Under the pieces are notes generated by a model. That model searched no databases. It was not told where the DNA came from and saw only the letters and a list, made by a program, of their open reading frames with translations. From the NCBI GenBank assembly GCA_964398775.1, contig CAYNND010000006.1, positions 3,890 through 67,889 on the forward strand: DNA of 64,000 bases, given 5' to 3'. Of this stretch, positions 1-55,913 are shown piece by piece (position 1 is the first letter of the stretch; each line of letters begins with the position of its first letter). The translations under genes and the position numbers were made by a program. Source of the DNA: an uncultured Candidatus Saccharibacteria bacterium (GTDB taxonomy: Bacteria > Patescibacteriota > Minisyncoccia > Phycocordibacterales > UBA2100).

Positions 1-20
1 CTGCGGCATCAGAAGGTACG

Positions 21-791
21 GTGCAGCGTCGCTTCAAAGTCGTGGCTGCGCTCTATCAACAAATATCTGAACCACTCAACAGAAAAAAACTGAATGAAGT
101 AAGTAACGACATCGTGCCACCACGCTTCGATTCAATTCCTGAAGAGCGATTGTTTAGTATCGAAAAGTCTGAGCACGGTATCACGCGCGAACATAGGCAG
201 CGATGGTACTTCTATCCTGATAGTGATGGTGTCACGACGTATCGATATACTGAGCGCACGCTACTCCAAAAAGGTTTTGTGTTGGCGTCGAGCACTGATG
301 ACCCATACAGTGTCTTTACTCGCACGAAGCAGGGCGTAACTGTGACGCTATATATGAATAAGCCGTATACATGGGCGCATGAAGGTAACACACAACTTGA
401 TGAAGTGTTGAGCGGTGTGCCACTCCATGGCGCAGCGCTTCGCTCTCATACACCTCGAGCAGCTGAATTTTTTGCCGCACTTGCTGCGAGTAAGCATGAT
501 GCACTCAGTTTCATCTTCCTTGGTTCGTGTAATGGCACGCAAGACATACAGCGAGCAGCAACTCTGACAAAAGCAGAACATCCAATACATATGATCGCTT
601 CAGAAAAAGAAGGCAAGTTAATCAGCAATGCACACTTGCTTGGGTATATTCTTGATGATGTGCAGCATCGTCGAGTGTTGGTATGGGATACGCTTTGGCA
701 TCGTGCGGGTATGAAAACTAAAGATATGAATTACCAAAAACCTTCACTCAACATTCCACTATTATTCACGTATGCAATGAGGCAAAAATAA
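21..791 (+). CDS. hypothetical protein. Probably 5'-partial: the frame is open back to the window start.
   Basis: Long ORF ends at 791 and is followed by a stem-loop/T-run terminator. No stop codon between position 3 and 21 in frame. No recognisable motif. Confidence 0.45.
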   Translation: MQRRFKVVAALYQQISEPLNRKKLNEVSNDIVPPRFDSIPEERLFSIEKSEHGITREHRQRWYFYPDSDGVTTYRYTERTLLQKGFVLASSTDDPYSVFTRTKQGVTVTLYMNKPYTWAHEGNTQLDEVLSGVPLHGAALRSHTPRAAEFFAALAASKHDALSFIFLGSCNGTQDIQRAATLTKAEHPIHMIASEKEGKLISNAHLLGYILDDVQHRRVLVWDTLWHRAGMKTKDMNYQKPSLNIPLLFTYAMRQK

Positions 792-792
792 A

Positions 793-816
793 GCCGCACG
801 CGCGGTTTTTTTGCCA
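793..816. terminator. bidirectional intrinsic terminator
   Basis: aaaGCCGCACGCGCGGttttttt: GC stem flanked by an A-run and a T-run. Sits between convergent ORFs (21-791 + and 853-1128 -). Confidence 0.5.
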
Positions 817-852
817 GGGGGCCGTTTTCCTTGCGGAGCGTACCCCCTTCTG

Positions 853-1128
853 TCATGTTCTCGGGGCTGCATCAGCAGTTTGTCTCGACTTTCGCCGCTG
901 GAGCGCAACTTGTACGCACGAAGCCCTTGCGGACTCGAGCGCCTGGAGCGACGTTCCGGGTGTCGGGACGAAGGTGTGGTCGTGGACGGTATAATGCACA
1001 CCTTGGTATAACCCTTTCTGCGCGATGCATCCAAGGAAGAATCTCCACTCTTCCTCGGCGTCCTGGGCGTTAACCCAGCCGATAGGCAACAGTGCGGTGA
1101 GGAGAACCGCGGCTTTGAGCGTGCGCAT
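853..1128 (-). CDS. small secreted protein (about 92 aa) with a Sec signal peptide. An alternative ncRNA reading is given in findings.
   Basis: From the internal Met: MRTLKAAVLLTALLPIGWVNA|QDAEEEW..., a classic n-h-c signal with an AxA site. GGAG 13 nt upstream of the ATG. Region is unusually GC-rich (about 60-65%). Confidence 0.4.
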   Translation of the reverse strand: MRTLKAAVLLTALLPIGWVNAQDAEEEWRFFLGCIAQKGLYQGVHYTVHDHTFVPTPGTSLQALESARASCVQVALQRRKSRQTADAAPRT

Positions 1129-1334
1129 GGCGCAGCCCTTTCTCCCAGGACAAGGCCCCCTGGGTGGGGAGGAAGCTCGGGTGAGCAACCTCGAAATATC
1201 TTCAATTTGAATGCATTTCGAGTGCGCTCTTCAGCATCATGACATGAAACTTTAAATCTTTCAAGTCAAGCTTAGTTTACTGGTTTGGGGATAAACAACG
1301 ACATACTTAGACACTTAGGTAGTAAAATATTGTA

Positions 1335-3881
1335 ATGATAGAAAAAATAAGTGTTGTTTTTGCTGTAATAACAATGCTTATTTTCACTGTAGCTCATGCG
1401 GCTCTCCCCGATATAACCACTACAACCGTAAGGCCCGCACCAGTCACTTCACCACTTGTGCCTGCTCCTGCACCAGCAGCATCTGACAAGAACAAAGAAG
1501 ACGATGTTGCTAAAAAACGCAGAGAATGCGACTCGCAACTTCAGGTTGCGCAGAAAAAATGCGCTGATGATAAAAAATTAAAGACAGTTGATGCTGGTAA
1601 GCTCAAATTAGCGTGTGAAAATGGTACGATACCAGAACGACATCGTCTTACAACAAGTACTGCTAAAGCAAACAAAGATGAGAAGGCGCCAATTAATTGT
1701 GTGACGCAAGAGTCTGAGAAAAAGAAACTTAAAGGTAAGTGTAATTGTAAAACGGGCTCTACATCTTCTTCACTTATCGACGAGTCCCTCGTAAAAGCTG
1801 CAAAAATTAATTGTTATGGCGTTGAAAATAAAGTTGTAACGATATGTAATGAGGATGACAGTAAGCTCTGCGAACAACGTGCGCGCATGAGTGGTGTACC
1901 AGAAAAGGATATTCCCAGTCAATGCGCAAGGCGTATTCAGGTTGCAAGTAATACCACCGGTACGATGACGGATGCTTCACCTGGAGCCCCAGATGATAAA
2001 AAAAAGGAAAAAGATATTTTAAAAACTACAACGGCAGCAGCTGCTCCACCCGCTCCAGCTGCAAAACCTGAACAACCAAAGATAGATAAAACTGGAACAG
2101 GGGTTGCCCCAGCACCACAGCAACCTCCAAGAGATATCACGAGAACAACCACTGCGGTATCTGCGCAGTCAGTGCAGCAGCCAGCTCAACAAACCCCAAG
2201 AGATGTCACAAGAACAACCACAGATACAGCAGCTCCATTTGTTGCTTCAAATCAGCAAGGTCCTGCTGCTCAAACACCGTCAGCGCAAACCCCATCTGCA
2301 CCAGCTGCACAACAGGCTCCAGTACAGCAGCCATATCAAACAGGAAACCAGCAGCAACAGCCAACCGGAGTTCAAACAGGGAGGCAGCAGCGTGATTATG
2401 CTTCACCACAGCGCGACTATAGCTCAGCACCTCGAGTGGCACAGGCGACCCCACAACGTGAATCATGGCTCAGTTCGTGGCTTTCCCCTCGACAAGAGTC
2501 ACAAGCGCCACAACAAGCTCCCGTTGTAATCAACAACAATAATGCGCAGCCATGGTTCATAGCAGAAATGAAGCGCATGGAGGATGCGCGACTTAAAGCT
2601 GAGCTCGAAAAGAAGCAGATTGCTGATACCCTAAAACGAGAAGCAGAGGCAAAACAAAAAGCTGAAAAAGAAAAAAAGCTCGCGAAGAATACATCTGCCA
2701 CTAAGTTATCAAAAACGCAGAAGAATACTGAAGAGTCAGTGTCAGATATTGACCCGCAAACAACATTTCTAAAGGCGCTTATGGATGCCCCGTCTCTTGA
2801 GGAGGTGGCAAAGCAGTACGAAGAGGAACAACAAAAAGAACGGGAAGCGTATGCAAAGGAGCAAACAAAGACGACAACGATTGCGCAGCGCCCTGCACCG
2901 ACGCAGCCGTCAGCTGAAGTGAAAGAAACGAAAGTGGTAATTGAGGAAAAGATTGAGCAAAGGCAGCGTGTTGCACAGCAGACACAGCGGCGTGTTCAGC
3001 CAACGTACTCGGACATTGCGCCATTTACGCAAGACGCTCAAAATGCAAAAGGTGAAAATAATGTACCACAGAAAAGTAGCCTCGTAAGCATGCTTGACCA
3101 AGAGGCAATCAAGAAAGGTATACCTGCGCCTCGTATTCAGGAGATTCCACTCCCTGAGAAAATTGCGTTTACTCGAACGTCATACACAGTCGTTGTCCCG
3201 ACCATACGTCAGACCATCAAGACAATTATGCGTGCATATGAGAAAGGTGAACTGAGTCAGCTTGAGCGAGACAGGCATGCGACACAACTTGTTGCCCTCT
3301 CAGAGCAATTGGCGGGTTCGGCGTACGGAGCTGACTTCGACACTACACAGGTTCTCAATGACGCAGCACGTGCGACAGAGTTGACAGCTTTCATGATTGC
3401 TGAGCATGCAGATAATAAAGCAATCAGTGATTCTTTGTATGGCGTCTTTGCGACACTCACTCCACTTACAAAATCAGAACCTGTCGCGCTCACTCCTCCA
3501 ACTGGTTCTCTGAAAGAATGGTCTGAACAACACTTCGCGCTCATTAAGTACAAGATTGAAACTGCGATGGAGGATACACAGAGCGAAAAAGCAAAAGAAC
3601 TGTATAGTAAAGCGCTGAGTTTGGTGAAGTCTGCAGAATTGTATAAAGATAGTGATCAGCAATACTGGAACTCTTCAGCAGACATAAAAGAAGCCGTTCG
3701 AACATTGAGTCTTGCAACAGCTCTTGATAGGGCAAGTAAGGAACCAGCAACACTCGAAGATACTCAAACACAAGAGCAGAAATCAGCAGTACAAAAAGCA
3801 AAAACGCGAGAAGCACTCCTGAAAGATAAGGGACAAGAAAAGGGTATATGGGGCTCTTTCCTCAATATGCTAGGGCTGTAG
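1335..3881 (+). CDS. large secreted or surface protein. N-terminal signal anchor, a Cys-rich domain, a P/Q/T/A-rich repetitive linker, a KAEKE coiled-coil and a C-terminal globular region.
   Basis: 848-aa ORF. N-terminal hydrophobic segment MIEKISVVFAVITMLIFTVAHA. More than 14 Cys in the first 200 aa. Repeats PRD(I/V)TRTTT x2 and QRDYxSxP x2. Lys/Glu-rich heptad-like stretch. Followed by a terminator. Confidence 0.7.
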   Translation: MIEKISVVFAVITMLIFTVAHAALPDITTTTVRPAPVTSPLVPAPAPAASDKNKEDDVAKKRRECDSQLQVAQKKCADDKKLKTVDAGKLKLACENGTIPERHRLTTSTAKANKDEKAPINCVTQESEKKKLKGKCNCKTGSTSSSLIDESLVKAAKINCYGVENKVVTICNEDDSKLCEQRARMSGVPEKDIPSQCARRIQVASNTTGTMTDASPGAPDDKKKEKDILKTTTAAAAPPAPAAKPEQPKIDKTGTGVAPAPQQPPRDITRTTTAVSAQSVQQPAQQTPRDVTRTTTDTAAPFVASNQQGPAAQTPSAQTPSAPAAQQAPVQQPYQTGNQQQQPTGVQTGRQQRDYASPQRDYSSAPRVAQATPQRESWLSSWLSPRQESQAPQQAPVVINNNNAQPWFIAEMKRMEDARLKAELEKKQIADTLKREAEAKQKAEKEKKLAKNTSATKLSKTQKNTEESVSDIDPQTTFLKALMDAPSLEEVAKQYEEEQQKEREAYAKEQTKTTTIAQRPAPTQPSAEVKETKVVIEEKIEQRQRVAQQTQRRVQPTYSDIAPFTQDAQNAKGENNVPQKSSLVSMLDQEAIKKGIPAPRIQEIPLPEKIAFTRTSYTVVVPTIRQTIKTIMRAYEKGELSQLERDRHATQLVALSEQLAGSAYGADFDTTQVLNDAARATELTAFMIAEHADNKAISDSLYGVFATLTPLTKSEPVALTPPTGSLKEWSEQHFALIKYKIETAMEDTQSEKAKELYSKALSLVKSAELYKDSDQQYWNSSADIKEAVRTLSLATALDRASKEPATLEDTQTQEQKSAVQKAKTREALLKDKGQEKGIWGSFLNMLGL

Positions 3882-3956: not shown

Positions 3957-4032
3957 TGGGGTGGCCATCGGGAATCGAACCCGAATTAAAGGCTCCACAA
4001 GCCTCTGTGTTAACCGTTACACCATGGCCACC
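3957..4032 (-). tRNA. tRNA-His (anticodon GTG). The extra 5' G(-1) and the 3' CCA are genome-encoded.
   Basis: Reverse complement folds as a cloverleaf. Acceptor gGUGGCCA/UGGCCAC. D-stem GUGU/ACAC. Anticodon stem GAGGC/GCCUU with loop UUGUGGA. T-arm UCGGG-UUCGAUU-CCCGA, then C73-CCA. Confidence 0.85.
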
Positions 4033-16276: not shown

Positions 16277-16981
16277 ATGAAAATCCATCGTTTCTTTATT
16301 GCAGATGACATCGTGGGTGCAACCTATGTCATCCAAGATGAAGATTTGGTGCATCAGATTACTCGTGTACTGCGTATCGGAACAGGGGAGCGCATTGCGC
16401 TTGTTGTTGGCGGTGGGAAACAGTTCCTTGCTGAGGTCGTTGAGACTGAGAAGCGTTTTGTAACAGTGCAGGTTTTGGAGGAACAGCAGGTCTGGGTCCC
16501 GAAACAACGCATAATTGTATGTCTCTCTGCGATACGGAAAGAGCGTTTTGAGTGGGCACTCGAAAAATGTACTGAAGTTGGTGTATCAGCAGTTGTGCCA
16601 CTTATTGCCGCTCGCAGTGAGCGTGGTGTTGTGCAACATGAGCGTGCGCAACGTATCATGCAAGAAGCAGCTGAGCAGTGTGGGCGTGGCGACATGCCCG
16701 AGCTTGGCACACCAGTCACGCTCGGAGATATGCTTCCAGAAGTTGGAGACGCATGTGTTGTCGCGTGTGATATGGGGGGCGGGCACTTCTCAGATGTGCC
16801 ACACATCGATACCGCAGATGTAATCTATCTCTGCATTGGCCCAGAAGGTGGGTGGAATGATGATGAGCGTGTATTGCTCCAATCCCATAATGCTGCTTTT
16901 GTATCCCTTGGCCCGACGGTACTGCGTGCAGAGACTGCAGCTGTCGCTGCGTGTGTTCTTGTACAACATGTTGTAGAATAG
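16277..16981 (+). CDS. rsmE: 16S rRNA (uracil1498-N3)-methyltransferase
   Basis: RFF...LRL...SERSV...AAEQCGR...GPEGGW...LGPTVLRAETAAV. 234 aa. Confidence 0.8.
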   Translation: MKIHRFFIADDIVGATYVIQDEDLVHQITRVLRIGTGERIALVVGGGKQFLAEVVETEKRFVTVQVLEEQQVWVPKQRIIVCLSAIRKERFEWALEKCTEVGVSAVVPLIAARSERGVVQHERAQRIMQEAAEQCGRGDMPELGTPVTLGDMLPEVGDACVVACDMGGGHFSDVPHIDTADVIYLCIGPEGGWNDDERVLLQSHNAAFVSLGPTVLRAETAAVAACVLVQHVVE

Positions 16982-19150: not shown

Positions 19151-19441
19151 ATGGCGACAAAATTGTTCATAGGCAACCTCGCGTATAAGACAAACGACGA
19201 TAGTCTCAAGGCTCACTTTGCACAGTGTGGAAACGTAGTTTCTGCATCTGTAGTAATGGAGCGCGAGACTGGTCGTTCACGTGGCTTCGGCTTCGTGGAG
19301 TTTGCAACAGCAGAGGAGGCAACAGCAGCAGTCGAGAAGCTCAACGGAGTTGAGCTTGACGGCCGCGCGCTCAACGTCTCTGAAGCTCGCGAGCGAGCTG
19401 ACCGCCCAGCACGTGCTCCTCAGGGAGACCGCCGCTGGTAA
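19151..19441 (+). CDS. RRM-domain RNA-binding protein
   Basis: RNP-2 LFIGNL and RNP-1 RGFGFVEF. 96 aa with an Arg-rich tail. Terminator follows. Confidence 0.85.
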   Translation: MATKLFIGNLAYKTNDDSLKAHFAQCGNVVSASVVMERETGRSRGFGFVEFATAEEATAAVEKLNGVELDGRALNVSEARERADRPARAPQGDRRW

Positions 19442-24373: not shown

Positions 24374-25636
24374 ATGTCTAAGCGTACTTTCTTATTGGTA
24401 GTACTGTCTTGCGCGATCCCTGTTGCACTCTTTGCCTGGACAGGACCATCAGCTGCACCACCAGGAAACAATGTCTCAGCTCCAGTGAACATCGGTTCAG
24501 CCGATCAGTTCAAACCAGGTATCATGGGGGCAAATATCATCAATATTTACGGCTCAAGTCAGTATCTTAGTTTTGGGAACACCACGGGAGCGAGCGGATT
24601 TGGTATCAGAAATAATGCAGGCTATTTAGAGTTCAAAAATAGTGGTGGTGCATGGAACCGCTTCGGCCCACCATTTACTGCAGGCTTAAGTGTGAGTGGT
24701 ACTCTCGGTACGCTCTATGGTGGCTCATATCGTATCAATGCAAACGGTGACAACGCAACAGGTGGAGGAATACTCATCGCAGACGATGGAGGCTTCTTTG
24801 ACTATAATGACGGGTGGGTTACATTTAACGGTTCAACAGGCATCAAGATTGCAGGAAATAATGGTGCGGCAAGTCAGGGCAATCAGCTACAGGTGAATGG
24901 AAGAATCGATGCAAATTCCTATGGAGGTAACGGGGGAATCATCTCATCAGGAAATTATGGTGGAACAGGAACCGCTGCATATTTTCCCTCAGGCATCTGG
25001 GCAAATGGTGCAAGTTCATGGCTCTATGGGACCATCTATACAAATGGACAGGTATACGATACTGCGGTTGGTACAGTGCGCGATGCGGGGGGTGGCTGGA
25101 TTCGTACCTATGGTGCAACTGGGTGGTACTCACAAACGTATGGAGGTGGCTGGCATATGTCCGACACGACATGGCTCAGAGCATACGGGAACAAAAATGT
25201 CTATACACCAGGCACAATCAGAGGTGATGCATCGCTCGACTCAAACAATCTCTGCGACCCTGCACACTCATATTGCTCAACGATATATGGTTTGTGGTAT
25301 GTGCATACGTACTACTATTCTGACAAACGGTTGAAAAAAGATATTAAAGATATGTCAGATGATTATGGTCTTGGAGCAATCATGAAGCTACGCCCTGTGC
25401 AATTTACATGGAAAGACAAAACTTCTTCAGAAAAACTTGGTCCACAAATTGGTCTCATCGCACAAGAAGTTGAACAAGTGATTCCTGAGGCTGTGGATAC
25501 TATGCCAAGTAAGGAAATTACTAACGAAGATGGCACGAAAGAAACAATTGAAAATCCAAAATCAGTCACGCATCAGAACCTTGTTGTACCGCTGATTAAG
25601 TATGCACAAGACTTAAAAGCACTCAACGATGTGTAA
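24374..25636 (+). CDS. secreted fibre protein with the conserved N-module and a C-terminal S74-type intramolecular chaperone (tail-fibre/endosialidase auto-processing) domain
   Basis: N-terminus FAWTGPSAAPPGNNVSAPVNIG...FGNTTGASGFGIRNNAG. Gly/Asn-rich middle. C-terminus YYSDKRLKKDIKD...LRPVQFTWKD...GLIAQEVEQVIPEAV matches the SDxRLKxNI / GxIAQEV..V.PE.V signature of the phage tail-spike chaperone domain. Confidence 0.75.
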   Translation: MSKRTFLLVVLSCAIPVALFAWTGPSAAPPGNNVSAPVNIGSADQFKPGIMGANIINIYGSSQYLSFGNTTGASGFGIRNNAGYLEFKNSGGAWNRFGPPFTAGLSVSGTLGTLYGGSYRINANGDNATGGGILIADDGGFFDYNDGWVTFNGSTGIKIAGNNGAASQGNQLQVNGRIDANSYGGNGGIISSGNYGGTGTAAYFPSGIWANGASSWLYGTIYTNGQVYDTAVGTVRDAGGGWIRTYGATGWYSQTYGGGWHMSDTTWLRAYGNKNVYTPGTIRGDASLDSNNLCDPAHSYCSTIYGLWYVHTYYYSDKRLKKDIKDMSDDYGLGAIMKLRPVQFTWKDKTSSEKLGPQIGLIAQEVEQVIPEAVDTMPSKEITNEDGTKETIENPKSVTHQNLVVPLIKYAQDLKALNDV

Positions 25637-28596: not shown

Positions 28597-29021
28597 TATA
28601 TTGAAAATATAAAAGTGCTCGCGCGTTCTGGATTGAACCAGGGGCATCGCGCGAGCACTTGAGCACACGGACTCCTCCGTGCGCGGTGACCAGGTACTCA
28701 ACGGCGGAGCCGCATAGGTCACGAAAGTAGCATATCATTACGTGTAGAAAAATGCAGTTGACCACAAATATTTCACTGGTACGATGCTTCTCGGTCAATA
28801 GCGAGAGGGCCTTCAAATGGCAACGCGAAAACAGATGCGTCAGGTGACCATTTCACCCAGGTGGGGTGGCCACGTGCGGACGCCAAAAGTGCAGCAACCT
28901 GTAGATTGGTATACCCACCTCGAGTGGTGGTACTACCGTCTCGGGCTCTTTGCGGCGTCAGTATGTCGCATCTTCGTTTGAGACCAGTCGAGGGCGCGTT
29001 CGCGTGCCCTCGACACCCTAT

Positions 29022-29050
29022 TTGACTTACTCGAAAAGCAAGGTATTATA
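29022..29050 (+). promoter_or_regulatory. sigma70-like promoter for secE-nusG-rplK
   Basis: TTGACT, 16-nt spacer, TATTAT, about 50 nt upstream of the secE ATG. Confidence 0.45.
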
Positions 29051-29101
29051 CAGCTATACAGGGCCGCGAGGCCTTTTAAAATTGCTTTATAAACAAATAC
29101 T

Positions 29102-29287
29102 ATGAATAACCTCATTCAATATTTCAAAGAGACTCGAGCAGAGCTCGATCACGTCAACTGGCCAACACAGCGCACGACACTTATCTATACCGCGCTCGTT
29201 GTGGCGTTTTCTGCAATCGTCGGTGTGTATCTTTCACTCCTTGATTACGGTTTTACGTTCGGACTCGATAAGTTCTTGATTCAGTAG
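29102..29287 (+). CDS. secE: preprotein translocase subunit SecE
   Basis: 61 aa, single C-terminal TM. ...ELDHVNWPTQRTTLIYTALVVAFSAIVGVYLSLLD. Precedes nusG. Confidence 0.85.
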   Translation: MNNLIQYFKETRAELDHVNWPTQRTTLIYTALVVAFSAIVGVYLSLLDYGFTFGLDKFLIQ

Positions 29288-29318: not shown

Positions 29319-29861
29319 ATGGCACTGCAAGCAATCAACGAGCGACACTGGTACGTCATCCACACCTACTCAGGATATGAGGAGGCGGTAGGTCGTAACT
29401 TGCGTCAGCGCATCGAGACGATGGGCATGAAGGATAAGATTTTTAACGTTGTAGTCCCGACAGAGAAGAAGATAAAGGTAAAGGGCGCAAAGCGCATTGA
29501 GGAGCGTGAGCGTGTCTACCCTGGATATGTACTTGTGGATATGATTGTAGACGACAACTCGTGGTATGTCGTGCGCAATACCCCTCGCGTTACAGGGTTC
29601 GTCGGCTCTGGGACACAGCCAGTGCCACTCTCTGAAGCAGAAGCGCAAGACCTCTTTAACCGCATGTCAGCTGACACTCCGACGCACGATATTGACTTGC
29701 AGCCAGATGACTCAGTCATGATTGTTGATGGACCATTTAAAGATCTGGAAGGGAAGGTTGGTGAGGTAAACGCAGCATCGGGCAAGGTGAAAGTGCTTGT
29801 GCCAATGTTTGGACGTGAGACCCCAGTTGAGCTGGACTTCCTCCAGGTGAAGAAGGTGTAG
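29319..29861 (+). CDS. nusG: transcription termination/antitermination factor NusG
   Basis: WYVIHTYSGYEEAV (NGN domain) and a C-terminal KOW FKDLEGKVGEV. 180 aa. Confidence 0.95.
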   Translation: MALQAINERHWYVIHTYSGYEEAVGRNLRQRIETMGMKDKIFNVVVPTEKKIKVKGAKRIEERERVYPGYVLVDMIVDDNSWYVVRNTPRVTGFVGSGTQPVPLSEAEAQDLFNRMSADTPTHDIDLQPDDSVMIVDGPFKDLEGKVGEVNAASGKVKVLVPMFGRETPVELDFLQVKKV

Positions 29862-50635: not shown

Positions 50636-51508
50636 ATGAACAAGCACATACTTATTACAGCCGGCATCATGGTACTTGCAACTGCAGGTATTGCATCAGC
50701 TCAGACCGACACTGGCACACCAACTGCGCAGCCACCACAAAGTGCGCCGACAGTTGCTGCTCCAAACATGCCAGTACCTCCAGTACCACCACCTGCAAAT
50801 GGTAAGGCAAAGAAGCGCATGGAGGAGTTCCAGCAGAACAGACAGCAGCGTCAGGAAGATCGCGGCGAGCGTCGAGAAGATCGTAGAGAAGACCGACAGA
50901 AAGTACAGGAAGTTCGAAAAGACCTTCGTGACGACCGCGGTGAGTTCCGAGAGAAAGTTCGGGAAGGACGCGAGGATATTCGAGAGGAAGGAAAGGCAGT
51001 TCGTGAAGATATGAAGAATAAGATAAAAGCTGCAGAGACACCTGAGGCACGAAAGGCACTCAAAGACGAAATGAAGGACAAGCGAGAAGCACTTCAGGAT
51101 AAACGACAGGAGTTTCGTGGCAAGGTGAAAGAGGAGCGCAAAGAGTTTGTGAAAAAGCATCTTGATATCGCTGGACAACGCTTTGGTGGGGTCATCAACC
51201 AGTTCAACACTATCATTACGAAGTTGAATGAGTATGTTGCCAAGCGAAAGACCGAGGGAGCAAACACTGCAGATGCAGAGGCGGCGATAGCGGCAGCACA
51301 GACTACAGCAGGTACTGCAAAGACTGCGATAGCAAAGGTCAGTGAACTTTCTACGCAAGTTGGTACCGGCCAGGCTGATAAAGAGGGAATCAAGGCCGCA
51401 GTACAGGCAGCAAATGATGCTATCAAGGCAGCACATGCAGCACTCAAGACTGCAGGCGAAAAAGTTCGCGCATTGAAGCCAGCAACGACCACAACGACAA
51501 CACAGTAA
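50636..51508 (+). CDS. secreted Arg/Glu/Asp/Lys-rich repetitive coiled-coil protein
   Basis: Signal peptide MNKHILITAGIMVLATAGIASA. Imperfect repeats of (E/D)DR(G/R)E(R/F)RE(D/K). Ala-rich C-terminus and a TTTTTQ tail. 290 aa. Confidence 0.55.
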   Translation: MNKHILITAGIMVLATAGIASAQTDTGTPTAQPPQSAPTVAAPNMPVPPVPPPANGKAKKRMEEFQQNRQQRQEDRGERREDRREDRQKVQEVRKDLRDDRGEFREKVREGREDIREEGKAVREDMKNKIKAAETPEARKALKDEMKDKREALQDKRQEFRGKVKEERKEFVKKHLDIAGQRFGGVINQFNTIITKLNEYVAKRKTEGANTADAEAAIAAAQTTAGTAKTAIAKVSELSTQVGTGQADKEGIKAAVQAANDAIKAAHAALKTAGEKVRALKPATTTTTTQ

Positions 51509-51568
51509 TATTTACACAGCGTCGCGCTCCGCCTCTAGGCGGAGCGCGTACGTATATTTTCATAACCT

Positions 51569-51889
51569 ATGAACAACCGTATAGTACTTATCGCTGCCGG
51601 CACGCTCATCGTCCTCGGCGTTTTTGCGTTTTTGTTTAACACATTCATGTCTTCTCCGCTTGAGCCCGTCGAGACGACGACTCCTGATACGACAACAGAA
51701 GTGATGCCACAAGAGGCAACATTTGAAGATGGTACTGTCGATACGACAGCACTCATTGGTGGCGAAGCAGAGGGGAAGCCAATAACGAATGTTGCTGAGG
51801 CGGTCCAAGCAATCGACACTATGAACTTTGATGCACTCGATGCACAGCTTGCGGCAGACCTTGCTGATATTGAAGCATCGTTCGAGTAA
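51569..51889 (+). CDS. small membrane-anchored acidic protein
   Basis: TM IVLIAAGTLIVLGVFAFLF, acidic tail. Strong terminator follows at 51906-51934. Confidence 0.45.
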   Translation: MNNRIVLIAAGTLIVLGVFAFLFNTFMSSPLEPVETTTPDTTTEVMPQEATFEDGTVDTTALIGGEAEGKPITNVAEAVQAIDTMNFDALDAQLAADLADIEASFE

Positions 51890-51905
51890 GAACTCGATTC
51901 ATAAA

Positions 51906-51952: not shown

Positions 51953-53017
51953 ATGATGCATAGCATGGATACACCGATGCAGATATCTATTACCTACGGG
52001 ACCATTGTAAAAACGATCCTGACACTGTTGGGGTTGTATGCGCTGTACATGCTCTCAGACCTGGTGTTAGTGGTCATAACGGCAATCGTTATTGCATCAG
52101 CAACTGAGCCAGGTTCACGATGGTTTATGAAGTATGGAATACCGAGGCTCTACTCGGTCATCGCCGTGTACGTGGCATTCATCGGTGTCTTTGTCTCTAT
52201 TGGGTATTTCTTTGTGCCGTCAGTGCTCAATGAGTTCTCGCATATGGTCGCATCACTCTCAAGCCCTACAGCTGCAGAAGCGGTAACCTTCGAGGCGCCA
52301 TTTTTTGGGACAGTATCACTGAGTGAAATCGCGATACAAATCAGAGAAGTATTTAAAGTCGTGTCCGAAAGTCCATTTGAAGCATTGAGTGCAATTTTTG
52401 GTGGCATCACTTCTTTTATTCTCGTAATTGTATTTTCATTTTATTTTGCTGTGCAAGAGCGGGGGATAGAAGACTTTTTGCGCATTGTCACGCCGTTGCG
52501 CTATGAGACATACATTGTCGGCTTGTGGAATCGCACAAAGGACAAGATCGGTCTCTGGATGCAAGGGCAGTTCATACTCGGACTAGTTATTGGTGTCCTC
52601 ACGTTTCTCTGCCTCTCATTACTCCAAGTGCCATACCCAGCACTGCAGTACACACTTGCGCTCGCAGTCATTGCTGGACTTTTCGAGATTATCCCACTTT
52701 TTGGTCCGACACTTTCTGCGATTCCTGCAATTGCTTTTGGGTTCATAGCGGGAGGTTTTCCGCTTGCGCTCATCATTGTCGTGCTCTACTTCATTATCCA
52801 GCAATTTGAAAACCACCTTATTTACCCACTTGTGGTTACAAAGGTGGTCGGTGTGCCACCAGTCATGGTCATCCTCGCACTTGTTATTGGTCTTAAGCTT
52901 GCTGGATTCTTTGGGGTATTGCTTGCTGTCCCGATGGCAGCACTCGTGCAGGAGATCATCTCAGACTGGGACAAGGGAAGACAGCTCGGCAACATACGAC
53001 CAACCTCTAACGCATAA
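51953..53017 (+). CDS. AI-2E family transporter (UPF0118/PerM-like)
   Basis: 8 TM. Conserved C-terminal region ...GLFEIIPLFGPTLSAIPA...IQQFENHLIYPLVV...PPVMVILALVIG. 354 aa. Confidence 0.75.
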   Translation: MMHSMDTPMQISITYGTIVKTILTLLGLYALYMLSDLVLVVITAIVIASATEPGSRWFMKYGIPRLYSVIAVYVAFIGVFVSIGYFFVPSVLNEFSHMVASLSSPTAAEAVTFEAPFFGTVSLSEIAIQIREVFKVVSESPFEALSAIFGGITSFILVIVFSFYFAVQERGIEDFLRIVTPLRYETYIVGLWNRTKDKIGLWMQGQFILGLVIGVLTFLCLSLLQVPYPALQYTLALAVIAGLFEIIPLFGPTLSAIPAIAFGFIAGGFPLALIIVVLYFIIQQFENHLIYPLVVTKVVGVPPVMVILALVIGLKLAGFFGVLLAVPMAALVQEIISDWDKGRQLGNIRPTSNA

Positions 53018-55271: not shown

Positions 55272-55388
55272 GAGCCTTACAGAGCGGCAGTTTGTAGAAT
55301 CTACGCCACTATGGTAGAGTGCCCGGCATTGCACGCCTCCACGCGCGCAATCGCACTTTCGGGTGCGTTTATAGGTTAATAAGTCACA

Positions 55389-55913
55389 ATGACGGAAGAC
55401 ACAACTCTTTCGTCTGAGGCTGAGGCGCAAGCTTCAGTATCGGATGAGCGCCGAGTTTACGAACTTGGCTACCTTATGGTATCCACGCTCTCTGAGGCAG
55501 AACGCGAGACAGTACTCGCGGATTTGCGCACAGAGGTGAGTAACCATGGAGGCACTTTTATTAGCGAAGGAGCACCGGTAGAGCATACACTTGCCTACAC
55601 GATGTTCACTCGCGACCGAGAGAAGAATGTTGCTCACGAGCAAGCATTTTTCGGGTGGATTAAGTGTGAGATTCCTGCAGCAGCTGCTGAGACAATCGCA
55701 GCATATGCACGAGCGCACAAGAAACTGATTCGCTCACTCTTCTTCAAGACAGTAAAGGAAGATACACGTGCAAATATCATCCCGGGGACACTCAAGGATG
55801 TGAAGCGCACAGGTACTATCAGTACTGGTCCTCGCACTGAAGAAGATAAGAAAGAGGTTTCAGAGGCAGAACTCGACAAAACTGTCGATAGTATCGTCGC
55901 TGACCTCGTCTAA
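55389..55913 (+). CDS. rpsF: 30S ribosomal protein S6 with N- and C-terminal extensions
   Basis: Position first in an rpsF-ssb-rpsR arrangement. Core RVYELGYLMVSTLSEAE...EHTLAYTM...SLFFKT is S6-like. 174 aa. Confidence 0.65.
   Translation: MTEDTTLSSEAEAQASVSDERRVYELGYLMVSTLSEAERETVLADLRTEVSNHGGTFISEGAPVEHTLAYTMFTRDREKNVAHEQAFFGWIKCEIPAAAAETIAAYARAHKKLIRSLFFKTVKEDTRANIIPGTLKDVKRTGTISTGPRTEEDKKEVSEAELDKTVDSIVADLV

Follow-up and report, generated by a model that had tools for sequence, protein, structure and literature searches.

A GC-rich island in a Candidatus Saccharibacteria contig: probably a gene for a small, fast-evolving secreted protein on a strongly folded mRNA

Introduction

Does the GC-rich island near the left end of a 64,000-nt stretch of bacterial DNA specify a structured RNA, or does it encode a small secreted protein? 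The stretch, which is called the window hereafter and is always meant at its full length, belongs to contig CAYNND010000006.1 (assembly GCA_964398775.1) of an uncultured Candidatus Saccharibacteria bacterium, and the island takes up about 380 nt of it. The original prediction, which was made from the letters of the DNA, had offered both options. In this study, the island is considered likely to be a stand-alone gene on the minus strand, encoding a small, fast-evolving protein with a predicted signal peptide on a GC-rich and strongly folded mRNA that is probably stabilised. The gene is previously uncharacterised, being annotated only as "hypothetical protein", and it represents a new genus-restricted, hypervariable orphan family.

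The island and its boundaries

The block at 811–1190 (380 nt) has a GC content of 61.3% and is the most GC-rich 380-nt block of the whole window, in which such blocks average 47.7% (standard deviation 2.8) and the second-highest reaches 56.1%. An island of 60–65% GC at about 815–1190 had been predicted and was found as such. GC content drops sharply on either side, to 34–40% at 700–800 and to 20–44% at 1176–1375. Near its two ends the block contains a perfect 10-nt inverted repeat, in which CCAGGGGGCC at 814–823 is matched by its exact reverse complement, GGCCCCCTGG, at 1154–1163, with 330 nt between the arms; each arm is found once in the window. The pair is thus real, although it had been placed at 815–824 and about 1160–1169. 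In 400 dinucleotide shuffles of 810–1200, a perfect repeat of at least 10 nt appeared anywhere in 7%, and in none of the 400 did both arms lie 60 nt or less from the two ends. The internal hairpins that had been pointed out are also present (the 12-bp hairpin in Table 1 is an example), and the island is bracketed, as described, by a terminator-like hairpin with a T-run on one side and by AT-rich DNA at 1200–1334 on the other. The locus occurs at 99.2–100% identity in five independent assemblies (two Logan, three JGI), and is therefore neither a chimera nor an assembly artefact.

A secretory reading frame at three orthologous loci

The minus strand of the island carries an open reading frame (ORF) of 91 codons, whose product starts with MRTLKAAVLLTALLPIGWVNAQDAEEEW. 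Its predicted signal peptide consists of residues 1–21 (1066–1128), with predicted cleavage between VNA and QD, and its cysteines are residues 34 and 71. A signal-peptide ORF of 92 residues with a GGAG Shine–Dalgarno (SD) motif had been proposed for this strand; the ORF and the signal peptide hold, while the product has 91 amino acids followed by a stop codon, and the motif reads GGGAG and lies 13 nt from the AUG.

Relatives of the locus were reached through two anchors, namely the PEP-utilising enzyme (phosphoenolpyruvate-utilising) and the protein alignment of Cob_adeno_trans. Two of them, both congeneric with the bacterium of the window, retain the island. In L086 (JGI 3300079086), the flanking genes share 80–83% nucleotide identity with the window and the Cob_adeno_trans protein is 98% identical, and in L093 (JACCDR011275407.1), the adjacent Cob_adeno_trans protein shows 97% amino-acid identity. 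Both have a block of 57–61% GC directly beside the Cob_adeno_trans gene, against a background of 47–48%, and both have an intact ORF in the same relative orientation: one of 101 aa in L086 (11324–11629), starting with MVARVGVVTALMVTFGIVATAAAQQKTQHF, and one of 95 aa in L093 (5168–5455), starting with MRTLIVGAAAAGIAALSVLAPAYSQERASL. All three ORFs have also been called as genes, for hypothetical proteins, by the JGI or NCBI pipelines. At all three loci, the small gene is divergent from the gene of a signal-peptide protein, which has 848 aa in the window and 920 aa in L086 and is a partial ORF in L093. In a more distant relative, L094 (66% Cob_adeno_trans identity, 39% GC), tRNA-His lies 200 nt after the Cob_adeno_trans gene and no island is seen in 350 nt of sequence; among the more distant relatives L088–L092 and L094–L106, no comparable ORF was found in the sequence covered.

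The three ORFs share a common plan, which comprises a signal peptide, Gln at position +1, a C-I motif 13–17 residues further on and a second Cys 10–21 residues from the C-terminus. The N-termini have the n-h-c organisation MRTLK-AAVLLTALLPIGW-VNA before QD in the window, MVAR-VGVVTALMVTFGIV-ATAAA before QQ in L086 and MRTL-IVGAAAAGIAALSVL-APAYS before QE in L093. Judged by rule, all three have the features of Sec and signal peptidase I substrates: a positive n-region, an uncharged hydrophobic h-region of about 10–15 residues, small residues at −3 and −1, and no lipobox Cys; the window product has no lipobox. In 20,000 dinucleotide shuffles of each island body, a sense ORF of at least 70 aa with such an N-terminus arose at indicative rates of 0.005%, 0.06% and 0.015%, and a sense ORF of at least 70 aa of any kind in 10–24%. 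The GC content by codon position is.63/.50/.66 in the window and.64/.45/.66 and.70/.48/.63 in the two relatives, which is GC1>GC2<GC3 in frame at three of three loci; GC3 (third codon position) of host genes is.36–.46. Across the five assemblies, the ORF varies at a single nucleotide polymorphism (SNP), 898 C>T, which falls on a third codon position and is synonymous. In addition, single-sequence AlphaFold 2 models were obtained for two of the proteins. That of the window protein (pLDDT 72, pTM 0.59) has a helix at 21–37, strands at 44–47 and 52–55 and a helix at 61–87, and that of the L086 protein has a helix at 34–47, strands at 60–63 and 68–71 and a helix at 75–92, with a core pLDDT of 66–80. 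The order helix, beta-hairpin, helix is the same in both models, and in both there is one Cys in helix 1 and one in helix 2.

At the nucleotide level, only the promoter region, the 5' hairpin, a post-stop motif (TGA, 5–6 nt, then TGGG..CGC) and the terminator align among the three loci, and no alignment is possible in the interior. Both ends of the transcription unit are thus orthologous, with a body that has diverged beyond recognition or has been replaced. In forced alignments, the proteins are 21–24% identical, and beyond the C-I motif few columns are invariant. Neighbouring proteins are 84–98% identical across the same relatives; thus, a small protein without detectable similarity must evolve extraordinarily fast.

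No known family was found for any of the products. Pfam and NCBIfam models gave no family for the window ORF, the sole listing scoring 11.9 bits against a cut-off of 251 bits, and nothing for the alternative-frame ORFs (147, 80 and 66 aa); Pfam likewise gave nothing for the L086 and L093 ORFs. The only homologue of the window protein was itself, both in a word-indexed search of 5.8 billion clusters and in a full HMMER search of 1.84 billion representatives. The island had no blastn or tblastn match in plasmids and phages, and a literature search for comparable Patescibacteria proteins returned nothing specific. The small secreted protein, one of the two options of the original prediction, is supported, since ORF, signal peptide, C-I motif and second Cys are kept at two orthologous loci whose nucleotides cannot be aligned.

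Folding of the transcript

Compared with 100 shuffles, the sense strand folds with a z-score of −4.74 in the window, −5.21 in L086 and −4.29 in L093, and in each case none of the 100 shuffles was as good; the antisense strand gives −2.31, −1.13 and −1.79, respectively. Background windows of 391 nt (n = 82) have a mean z of +0.14 (standard deviation 1.08) and a minimum of −3.1. The untranslated regions (UTRs) are GC-rich too, with 70%, 58% and 63% GC in the 5'UTR beyond the first hairpin and 59%, 57% and 61% in the 3'UTR of the window, L086 and L093, and therefore amino-acid composition cannot explain the island. When synonymous codons were permuted with protein and codon usage fixed, the native mRNA was more stable (z −2.0, −3.3 and −2.5 at the three loci), and only 3, 1 and 2 of 150 permutations were as stable.

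The predicted folds have a common anatomy, consisting of a 5' hairpin of 45–50 nt, a long-range helix that encloses the ORF, a strong post-stop hairpin and the terminator. In all three, the AUG lies in or beside a small hairpin, and GGGAG or GGGGA is partly paired. In the partition function of the 445-nt window transcript, the pairs of the long-range helix have probabilities of 0.95–1.0; the arm at 814–823 can alternatively pair locally with GGGGG at 844–848, which gives the 3' post-stop hairpin present in L086 and L093. Both SNPs of the island fall on unpaired positions of the predicted fold. The inverted repeat had originally been taken for the closing helix of a structured RNA. Exceptional folding of the sense transcript in three genomes agrees with this, but the helix is conserved only in part and joins the 5'UTR and 3'UTR of an mRNA rather than the ends of a ribozyme-like RNA.

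Several observations weigh against a secreted-protein gene on a stabilised mRNA. In BLASTP, two pairs of the three proteins aligned with E=20 and E=5.2 and the remaining pair did not align, so that their homology rests on synteny, architecture and predicted topology, and the signal-peptide rule was devised after the sequences had been seen, which makes the shuffle rates indicative only. The SD-like GGGAG of the window is rather far from its AUG, and most host genes apparently have no SD. As for the fold, 3 of 20 control host genes have z≤−2 in the synonymous permutation as well, the intergenic region 28600–29060 has z of about −5 on both strands, and strong folding is hence not unique to the island. 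The ORF on its own folds only modestly (z −1.56, −2.79 and −0.61), and therefore the extreme z-scores come from the UTR hairpins and UTR contacts. Finally, the 5'UTR/3'UTR helix is strong in the window only (10 bp, probability about 1). L093 has a different closing helix of 8 bp with a probability of 0.5–0.85, and L086 has a helix from the 5'UTR to the end of the ORF in the minimum free energy (MFE) structure only, with no 5'UTR–3'UTR pair above a probability of 0.3. The best 5'UTR/3'UTR duplexes, with z of −1.5, +0.4 and −2.2 against shuffled UTRs, are only weakly above chance.

Alternative explanations

The folding raises the possibility of a non-coding or dual-function structured RNA of about 350–450 nt on the minus strand, for which the ORF would be incidental or secondary. 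Such an RNA would account for the strand-specific stability in three genomes, for the GC-rich UTRs, for a 5' hairpin that is retained through changes on both sides at two pairs and for the lack of conservation of the amino-acid sequence, and long ORFs come easily in GC-rich DNA, as the 10–24% of shuffles illustrate. It would not account for an ORF with signal peptide, Gln +1, C-I motif and second Cys at three of three loci, for which the chance is at most 0.06% per locus, nor for the in-frame codon-position pattern at all three or the agreement in predicted topology between the two modelled proteins. A structured RNA is generally marked by conserved structure without a conserved frame. Here, the frame is kept in three of three cases and only the 5' hairpin shows pairing-preserving changes, and the interior does not align, so that no consensus internal structure could be derived across the three transcripts; the modest folding of the ORF on its own also speaks against this explanation. 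The known structured RNAs that had been suggested found no support either. In a scan of the whole window with 4227 Rfam models, only tRNA-His (3957–4031, minus strand) passed the gathering score. At E≤10, the region 600–1500 yielded sub-threshold matches at chance level, none of them to transfer-messenger RNA (tmRNA), ribonuclease P (RNase P) RNA or signal recognition particle (SRP) RNA, the L086 and L093 islands had no Rfam match, and ARAGORN reported no tmRNA. Two RNase P-like motifs noticed by eye on the minus strand, GAGAAAGGGC and ACAGAAGGGGG, were rejected, as the would-be P4 strands are not complementary. In view of these results, we regard a structured RNA with an incidental or secondary ORF as improbable.

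A second explanation is that the island is foreign DNA, recently acquired from a high-GC donor and possibly exchanged repeatedly as a cassette, in which case its composition would simply reflect its origin. The contrast of 61% GC and a GC3 of.66 with the 47.7% and about.40 of the host fits this, as do the orphan protein and the unrelated interiors of the three islands. The segment between Cob_adeno_trans and tRNA-His is variable, with a 587-aa gene in the window genome only, and the position of tRNA-His in L094 points in the same direction. However, the island occupies an orthologous spot in three species with a conserved, native-looking promoter, hairpins and terminator, and since its ends are conserved in all three, it predates their divergence; a gene of that age should have drifted to host composition unless the high GC was maintained. 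In addition, no donor was found among the 5.8 billion or 1.84 billion proteins or the plasmids and phages searched, and no integrase, target-site duplication or attC-like site is seen in the sequence. Recent import thus also appears improbable to us. A sustained high GC content could result from selection for RNA stability, from GC-biased repair at a variable, recombination-prone locus or from repeated replacement by DNA of high-GC donors; the last seems the least likely, because the native ends are conserved and no donor was found.

A module resembling type I toxin–antitoxin systems such as hok or aapA1, which would produce a membrane-active small protein from an inert mRNA closed between its 5' and 3' ends, could be read from the strong UTR helix of the window, the partly paired SD and AUG in the three folds, and the combination of a 5'-terminal hairpin with an N-terminal hydrophobic helix. 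The products are, however, 91–101 aa long, with a cleavable signal peptide (predicted) and a hydrophilic two-Cys domain that is predicted to fold, instead of a hydrophobic peptide of less than 60 aa; a simple consensus search revealed no sigma-70-like antisense promoter in or beside the island at the three loci, the closing helix is not conserved, and there are no repeated copies. We consider such a module very unlikely. Least credible of all is a miniature inverted-repeat transposable element (MITE) bounded by 10-bp terminal inverted repeats, for although the perfect repeat sits at both block edges in a placement that no shuffle reproduced, the flanks (TTTG and GTGG) form no target-site duplication, each arm is present only once in 64 kb, the islands of the relatives lie at the same position without the repeats, and the unit holds a conserved promoter, ORF and terminator.

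A model of the gene and its product

For a gene encoding a secreted protein on a folded mRNA, the parts of the locus suggest the following course of expression. Transcription from the gene's own promoter (about 1264–1236) would yield a monocistronic minus-strand transcript of about 445 nt, running from about 1229 to about 785. The 91-aa precursor would be exported by Sec and cut by signal peptidase I after VNA21, leaving a mature protein of about 70 aa with an N-terminal Gln, which, going by the structural models, would fold as helix, beta-hairpin and helix, with a Cys34–Cys71 disulfide likely. The 5' stem-loop, the UTR helix that closes the ORF, the 3' hairpin and the terminator probably protect both ends of the mRNA and so make it long-lived, which would be their main effect, and the partly occluded SD/AUG region may limit translation initiation. 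The small protein would be a surface or extracellular factor under diversifying selection. Its hypervariability and its pairing with a large, variable secreted protein make it probable that it acts at the cell surface, where it would meet host cells or phages.

A more far-reaching proposal, which we think rather unlikely, though still worth stating, is that, in a clade of Patescibacteria, the compactly folded transcript and its high GC content are themselves maintained by selection while the secreted protein is free to diversify. The transcript would then have a function of its own, as an exceptionally long-lived or translationally gated "storage" mRNA or as a dual-function RNA, coupled to a hypervariable factor of the surface or of host interaction and to its large divergent partner.

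Features of the locus

The features of the transcription unit are collected in Table 1. The transcription start of the small gene may be placed near 1229 from the position of the promoter-like site. The aligned promoters read TTGAAA-17-CATGAT in the window, GTGACA-17-TATGGT in L093 and TGACAA-16-TATAAG in L086, and promoter and 5' hairpin together have the signature CACTCGAAATG ... ATTTCGAG. The core of the 5' hairpin is the same in L093 as in the window. In L086 it is CCCGAAUU/AGUUCGGG, with two pairs altered and pairing retained; this was read from the sequences, as MAFFT misregisters the 5' arm of the L086 hairpin. SD-like motifs of the relatives are GGGAG 7 nt before the AUG in L086 and GGGGA 11 nt before it in L093, and the window has an alternative SD-like AAGGG 7 nt before its AUG.

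Table 1. Positions in the window of the parts assigned to the small gene and its transcript.
Feature	Position	Strand	Basis or remark
AT-rich divergent control region	1230–1334	both	common to the small gene and the 848-aa protein gene
Promoter-like site, sigma-70-like: TTGAAA, 17 nt, CATGAT, TG before the −10	1236–1264	minus	consensus scan
5'-terminal stem-loop H1, core CUCGAAAU/AUUUCGAG	1183–1229	minus	inverted repeat and MFE structure
5'UTR arm of the 10-bp long-range helix, CCAGGGGGCC on the mRNA	1154–1163	minus	inverted repeat
GGGAG, SD-like motif	1142–1146	minus	partly paired with CCCAGG of the ORF in the predicted fold
ORF, 91 codons and stop; MRTLKAAVLLTALLPIGWVNA then QD	853–1128	minus	precursor of small secreted protein (predicted)
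12-bp hairpin in the ORF, CCGAGGAAGAGU-GGAG-AUUCUUCCUUGG	1032–1059	minus	inverted repeat I10 and fold
3'UTR arm of the long-range helix, GGCCCCCUGG on the mRNA	814–823	minus	inverted repeat and fold
Probable bidirectional intrinsic terminator: CCGC 794–797 / GCGG 802–805 with A-U and G-U pairs, T-run on each strand	790–812	both	

The terminator, which is common to the small gene and the converging 587-aa gene (ending at 791), reads CCGC-GCGU-GCGG followed by CUUUAUUUUU on the mRNA strand, and the same hairpin followed by a T7 run on the plus strand. Its stem is short, and the terminator scan listed only a weaker overlapping candidate at 802–825. CCGC-N3-4-GCGG with T-runs is retained in L086 and L093, and a SNP at 801 in L001, a contig of the same strain, falls in the terminator loop.

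Neighbourhood and other features of the window

In the window together with L001, which extends past its left end, the gene order is Cob_adeno_trans (plus), a 587-aa orphan (plus), the island (minus), the 848-aa protein (plus) and tRNA-His (minus), followed by a 129-aa gene, HSP20, flavokinase, EamA, the PEP-utilising enzyme and the trp operon. The FtsK protein of the window has its best relatives in metagenome-assembled genomes of Patescibacteria (Paceibacteria, Minisyncoccia, "Taylorbacteria"-type), at 84%, 68% and then at most 57% identity, and the host is therefore a bacterium of the candidate phyla radiation, Paceibacteria-like in its affinities.

The segment from Cob_adeno_trans to tRNA-His and flavokinase is a variable region. 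The 587-aa gene to the left of the island, of which window positions 1–791 hold the C-terminal 256 aa, is complete in L001 (1298–3061), and its product has no homologue in 5.8 billion clusters and no relatives in genome or metagenome contigs. L086 has no such gene, so that Cob_adeno_trans directly abuts the small gene, and it also has no HSP20 and 129-aa genes. The divergent 848-aa protein (1335–3881, plus strand) combines a signal peptide and a Cys-rich N-terminal part with P/Q-rich low-complexity repeats and a region resembling a coiled coil. Alignment with the 920-aa counterpart of L086 is confined to the C-terminal half of its gene (2275–3880), at 83% nucleotide identity, and the N-terminal half is hypervariable.

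Other parts of the window fold strongly as well. The intergenic region 28600–29060, upstream of secE (29102–29287) and nusG (29319–29861), contains the second most GC-rich 380-nt block (56%) and has fold z-scores of −5.07 on the plus strand and −4.27 on the minus strand. Neither a convincing ORF nor an Rfam match at E≤1 was found there, which makes the region a candidate for a structured RNA that has escaped annotation or for a group of strong hairpins. At 55300–55750, the leader and start of a 174-aa ORF (55389–55913, plus strand, S6-like by eye) have a native folding energy of −174 kcal/mol compared with −144 for synonymous permutations (z −6.3), the strongest of the 20 control genes, and possibly form a ribosomal-protein leader or an autoregulatory structure. 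The lowest z-scores of the background sample, −3.1 and −2.9 on the two strands, belong to 51501–51891, between the ORFs 50636–51508 and 51953–53017.

Most genes of the window (for example those starting at 16277, 18072, 20475, 24374, 31075 and 45928) have no SD and show, 6–10 nt before the ATG, −10-like hexamers such as TATACT, TATGAT and GATACG; leaderless or SD-independent initiation may thus be widespread in this genome. As most starts follow such AT-rich −10-like sequence, the leader of the small gene is unusual for the genome. A 96-aa RRM-type RNA-binding protein (RNA recognition motif) is encoded at 19151–19441 (MATKLFIGNLAYKT...), with up to 61% GC in 200 nt; hence, small GC-rich genes besides the island do exist in the genome. 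Finally, the gene at 24374–25636 encodes a 420-aa protein with Shufflon_N (the constant region of pilin shufflons) and Peptidase_S74 (an endosialidase chaperone), which is unusual for a genome of the candidate phyla radiation (CPR).

Significance

The choice between protein and RNA that the locus presents is settled in favour of a gene for a protein with predicted export; the island is not the RNase P RNA, tmRNA or SRP RNA of a CPR bacterium that had gone unrecognised. The orphan family lies beyond ordinary homology search, its three orthologues being linked only by synteny, transcript ends, signal-peptide architecture and predicted topology. If export and diversification take place as proposed, the family is an example of rapid turnover of secreted or surface proteins in episymbiotic Patescibacteria, and one in which the coding sequence changes but features at the mRNA level (composition, 5' hairpin, end-to-end pairing) persist. 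It may also be useful for testing mRNA stabilisation in a lineage whose genes are apparently mostly leaderless and devoid of SD motifs.

Comparison with known systems

The island resembles RNase P RNA, tmRNA and SRP RNA in its size of about 350–450 nt, in being GC-rich relative to its genome and in a helix that joins regions near the two ends. It differs from them in having no covariance-model match at E≤10, no P4-type complementarity by inspection and a conserved signal-peptide frame. The type I toxin mRNAs of hok/sok and aapA1/isoA1 are known for long-distance pairing between 5' and 3' ends. The compact mRNA predicted here would likewise have a 5'UTR–3'UTR helix, a partly sequestered SD and AUG and a 5' hairpin, but the length of its protein exceeds that of such toxins and the prediction for it is secretion and folding, the consensus search gave no antisense promoter, and the helix is not conserved between species.

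Rapidly evolving small secreted Cys proteins that keep their fold and not their sequence are described for effectors of fungal plant pathogens in two reports (10.1101/2023.03.16.532886; PMC8715435). Like them, the small protein combines a predicted signal peptide with a small Cys domain, and close relatives no longer resemble each other in sequence but retain the predicted topology. According to a further report, Patescibacteria live on other cells (PMC13622651), which is a likeness to the producers of fungal effectors. Unlike these effectors, the small protein is bacterial, is encoded in a single copy and has two cysteines only, and the three sequences are too divergent for dN/dS (the ratio of nonsynonymous to synonymous substitution).

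The closest functional parallel appears to lie elsewhere. The lpp mRNA and the ompA 5' stem-loop of Escherichia coli belong to stable, structured mRNAs of small, abundant, exported envelope proteins. The transcript described here would share with them a monocistronic arrangement for a small Sec-exported protein (predicted), a 5' stem-loop, internal hairpins and an intrinsic terminator, and in both cases mRNA longevity is the proposed role of the fold. The product, unlike Lpp and OmpA, is not a lipoprotein, is unrelated to them in sequence or family and is hypervariable, and its transcript exceeds the genome in GC content by about 13 points. By analogy, the small gene would come closest in its working to these stable, hairpin-rich transcripts, without being related to them.

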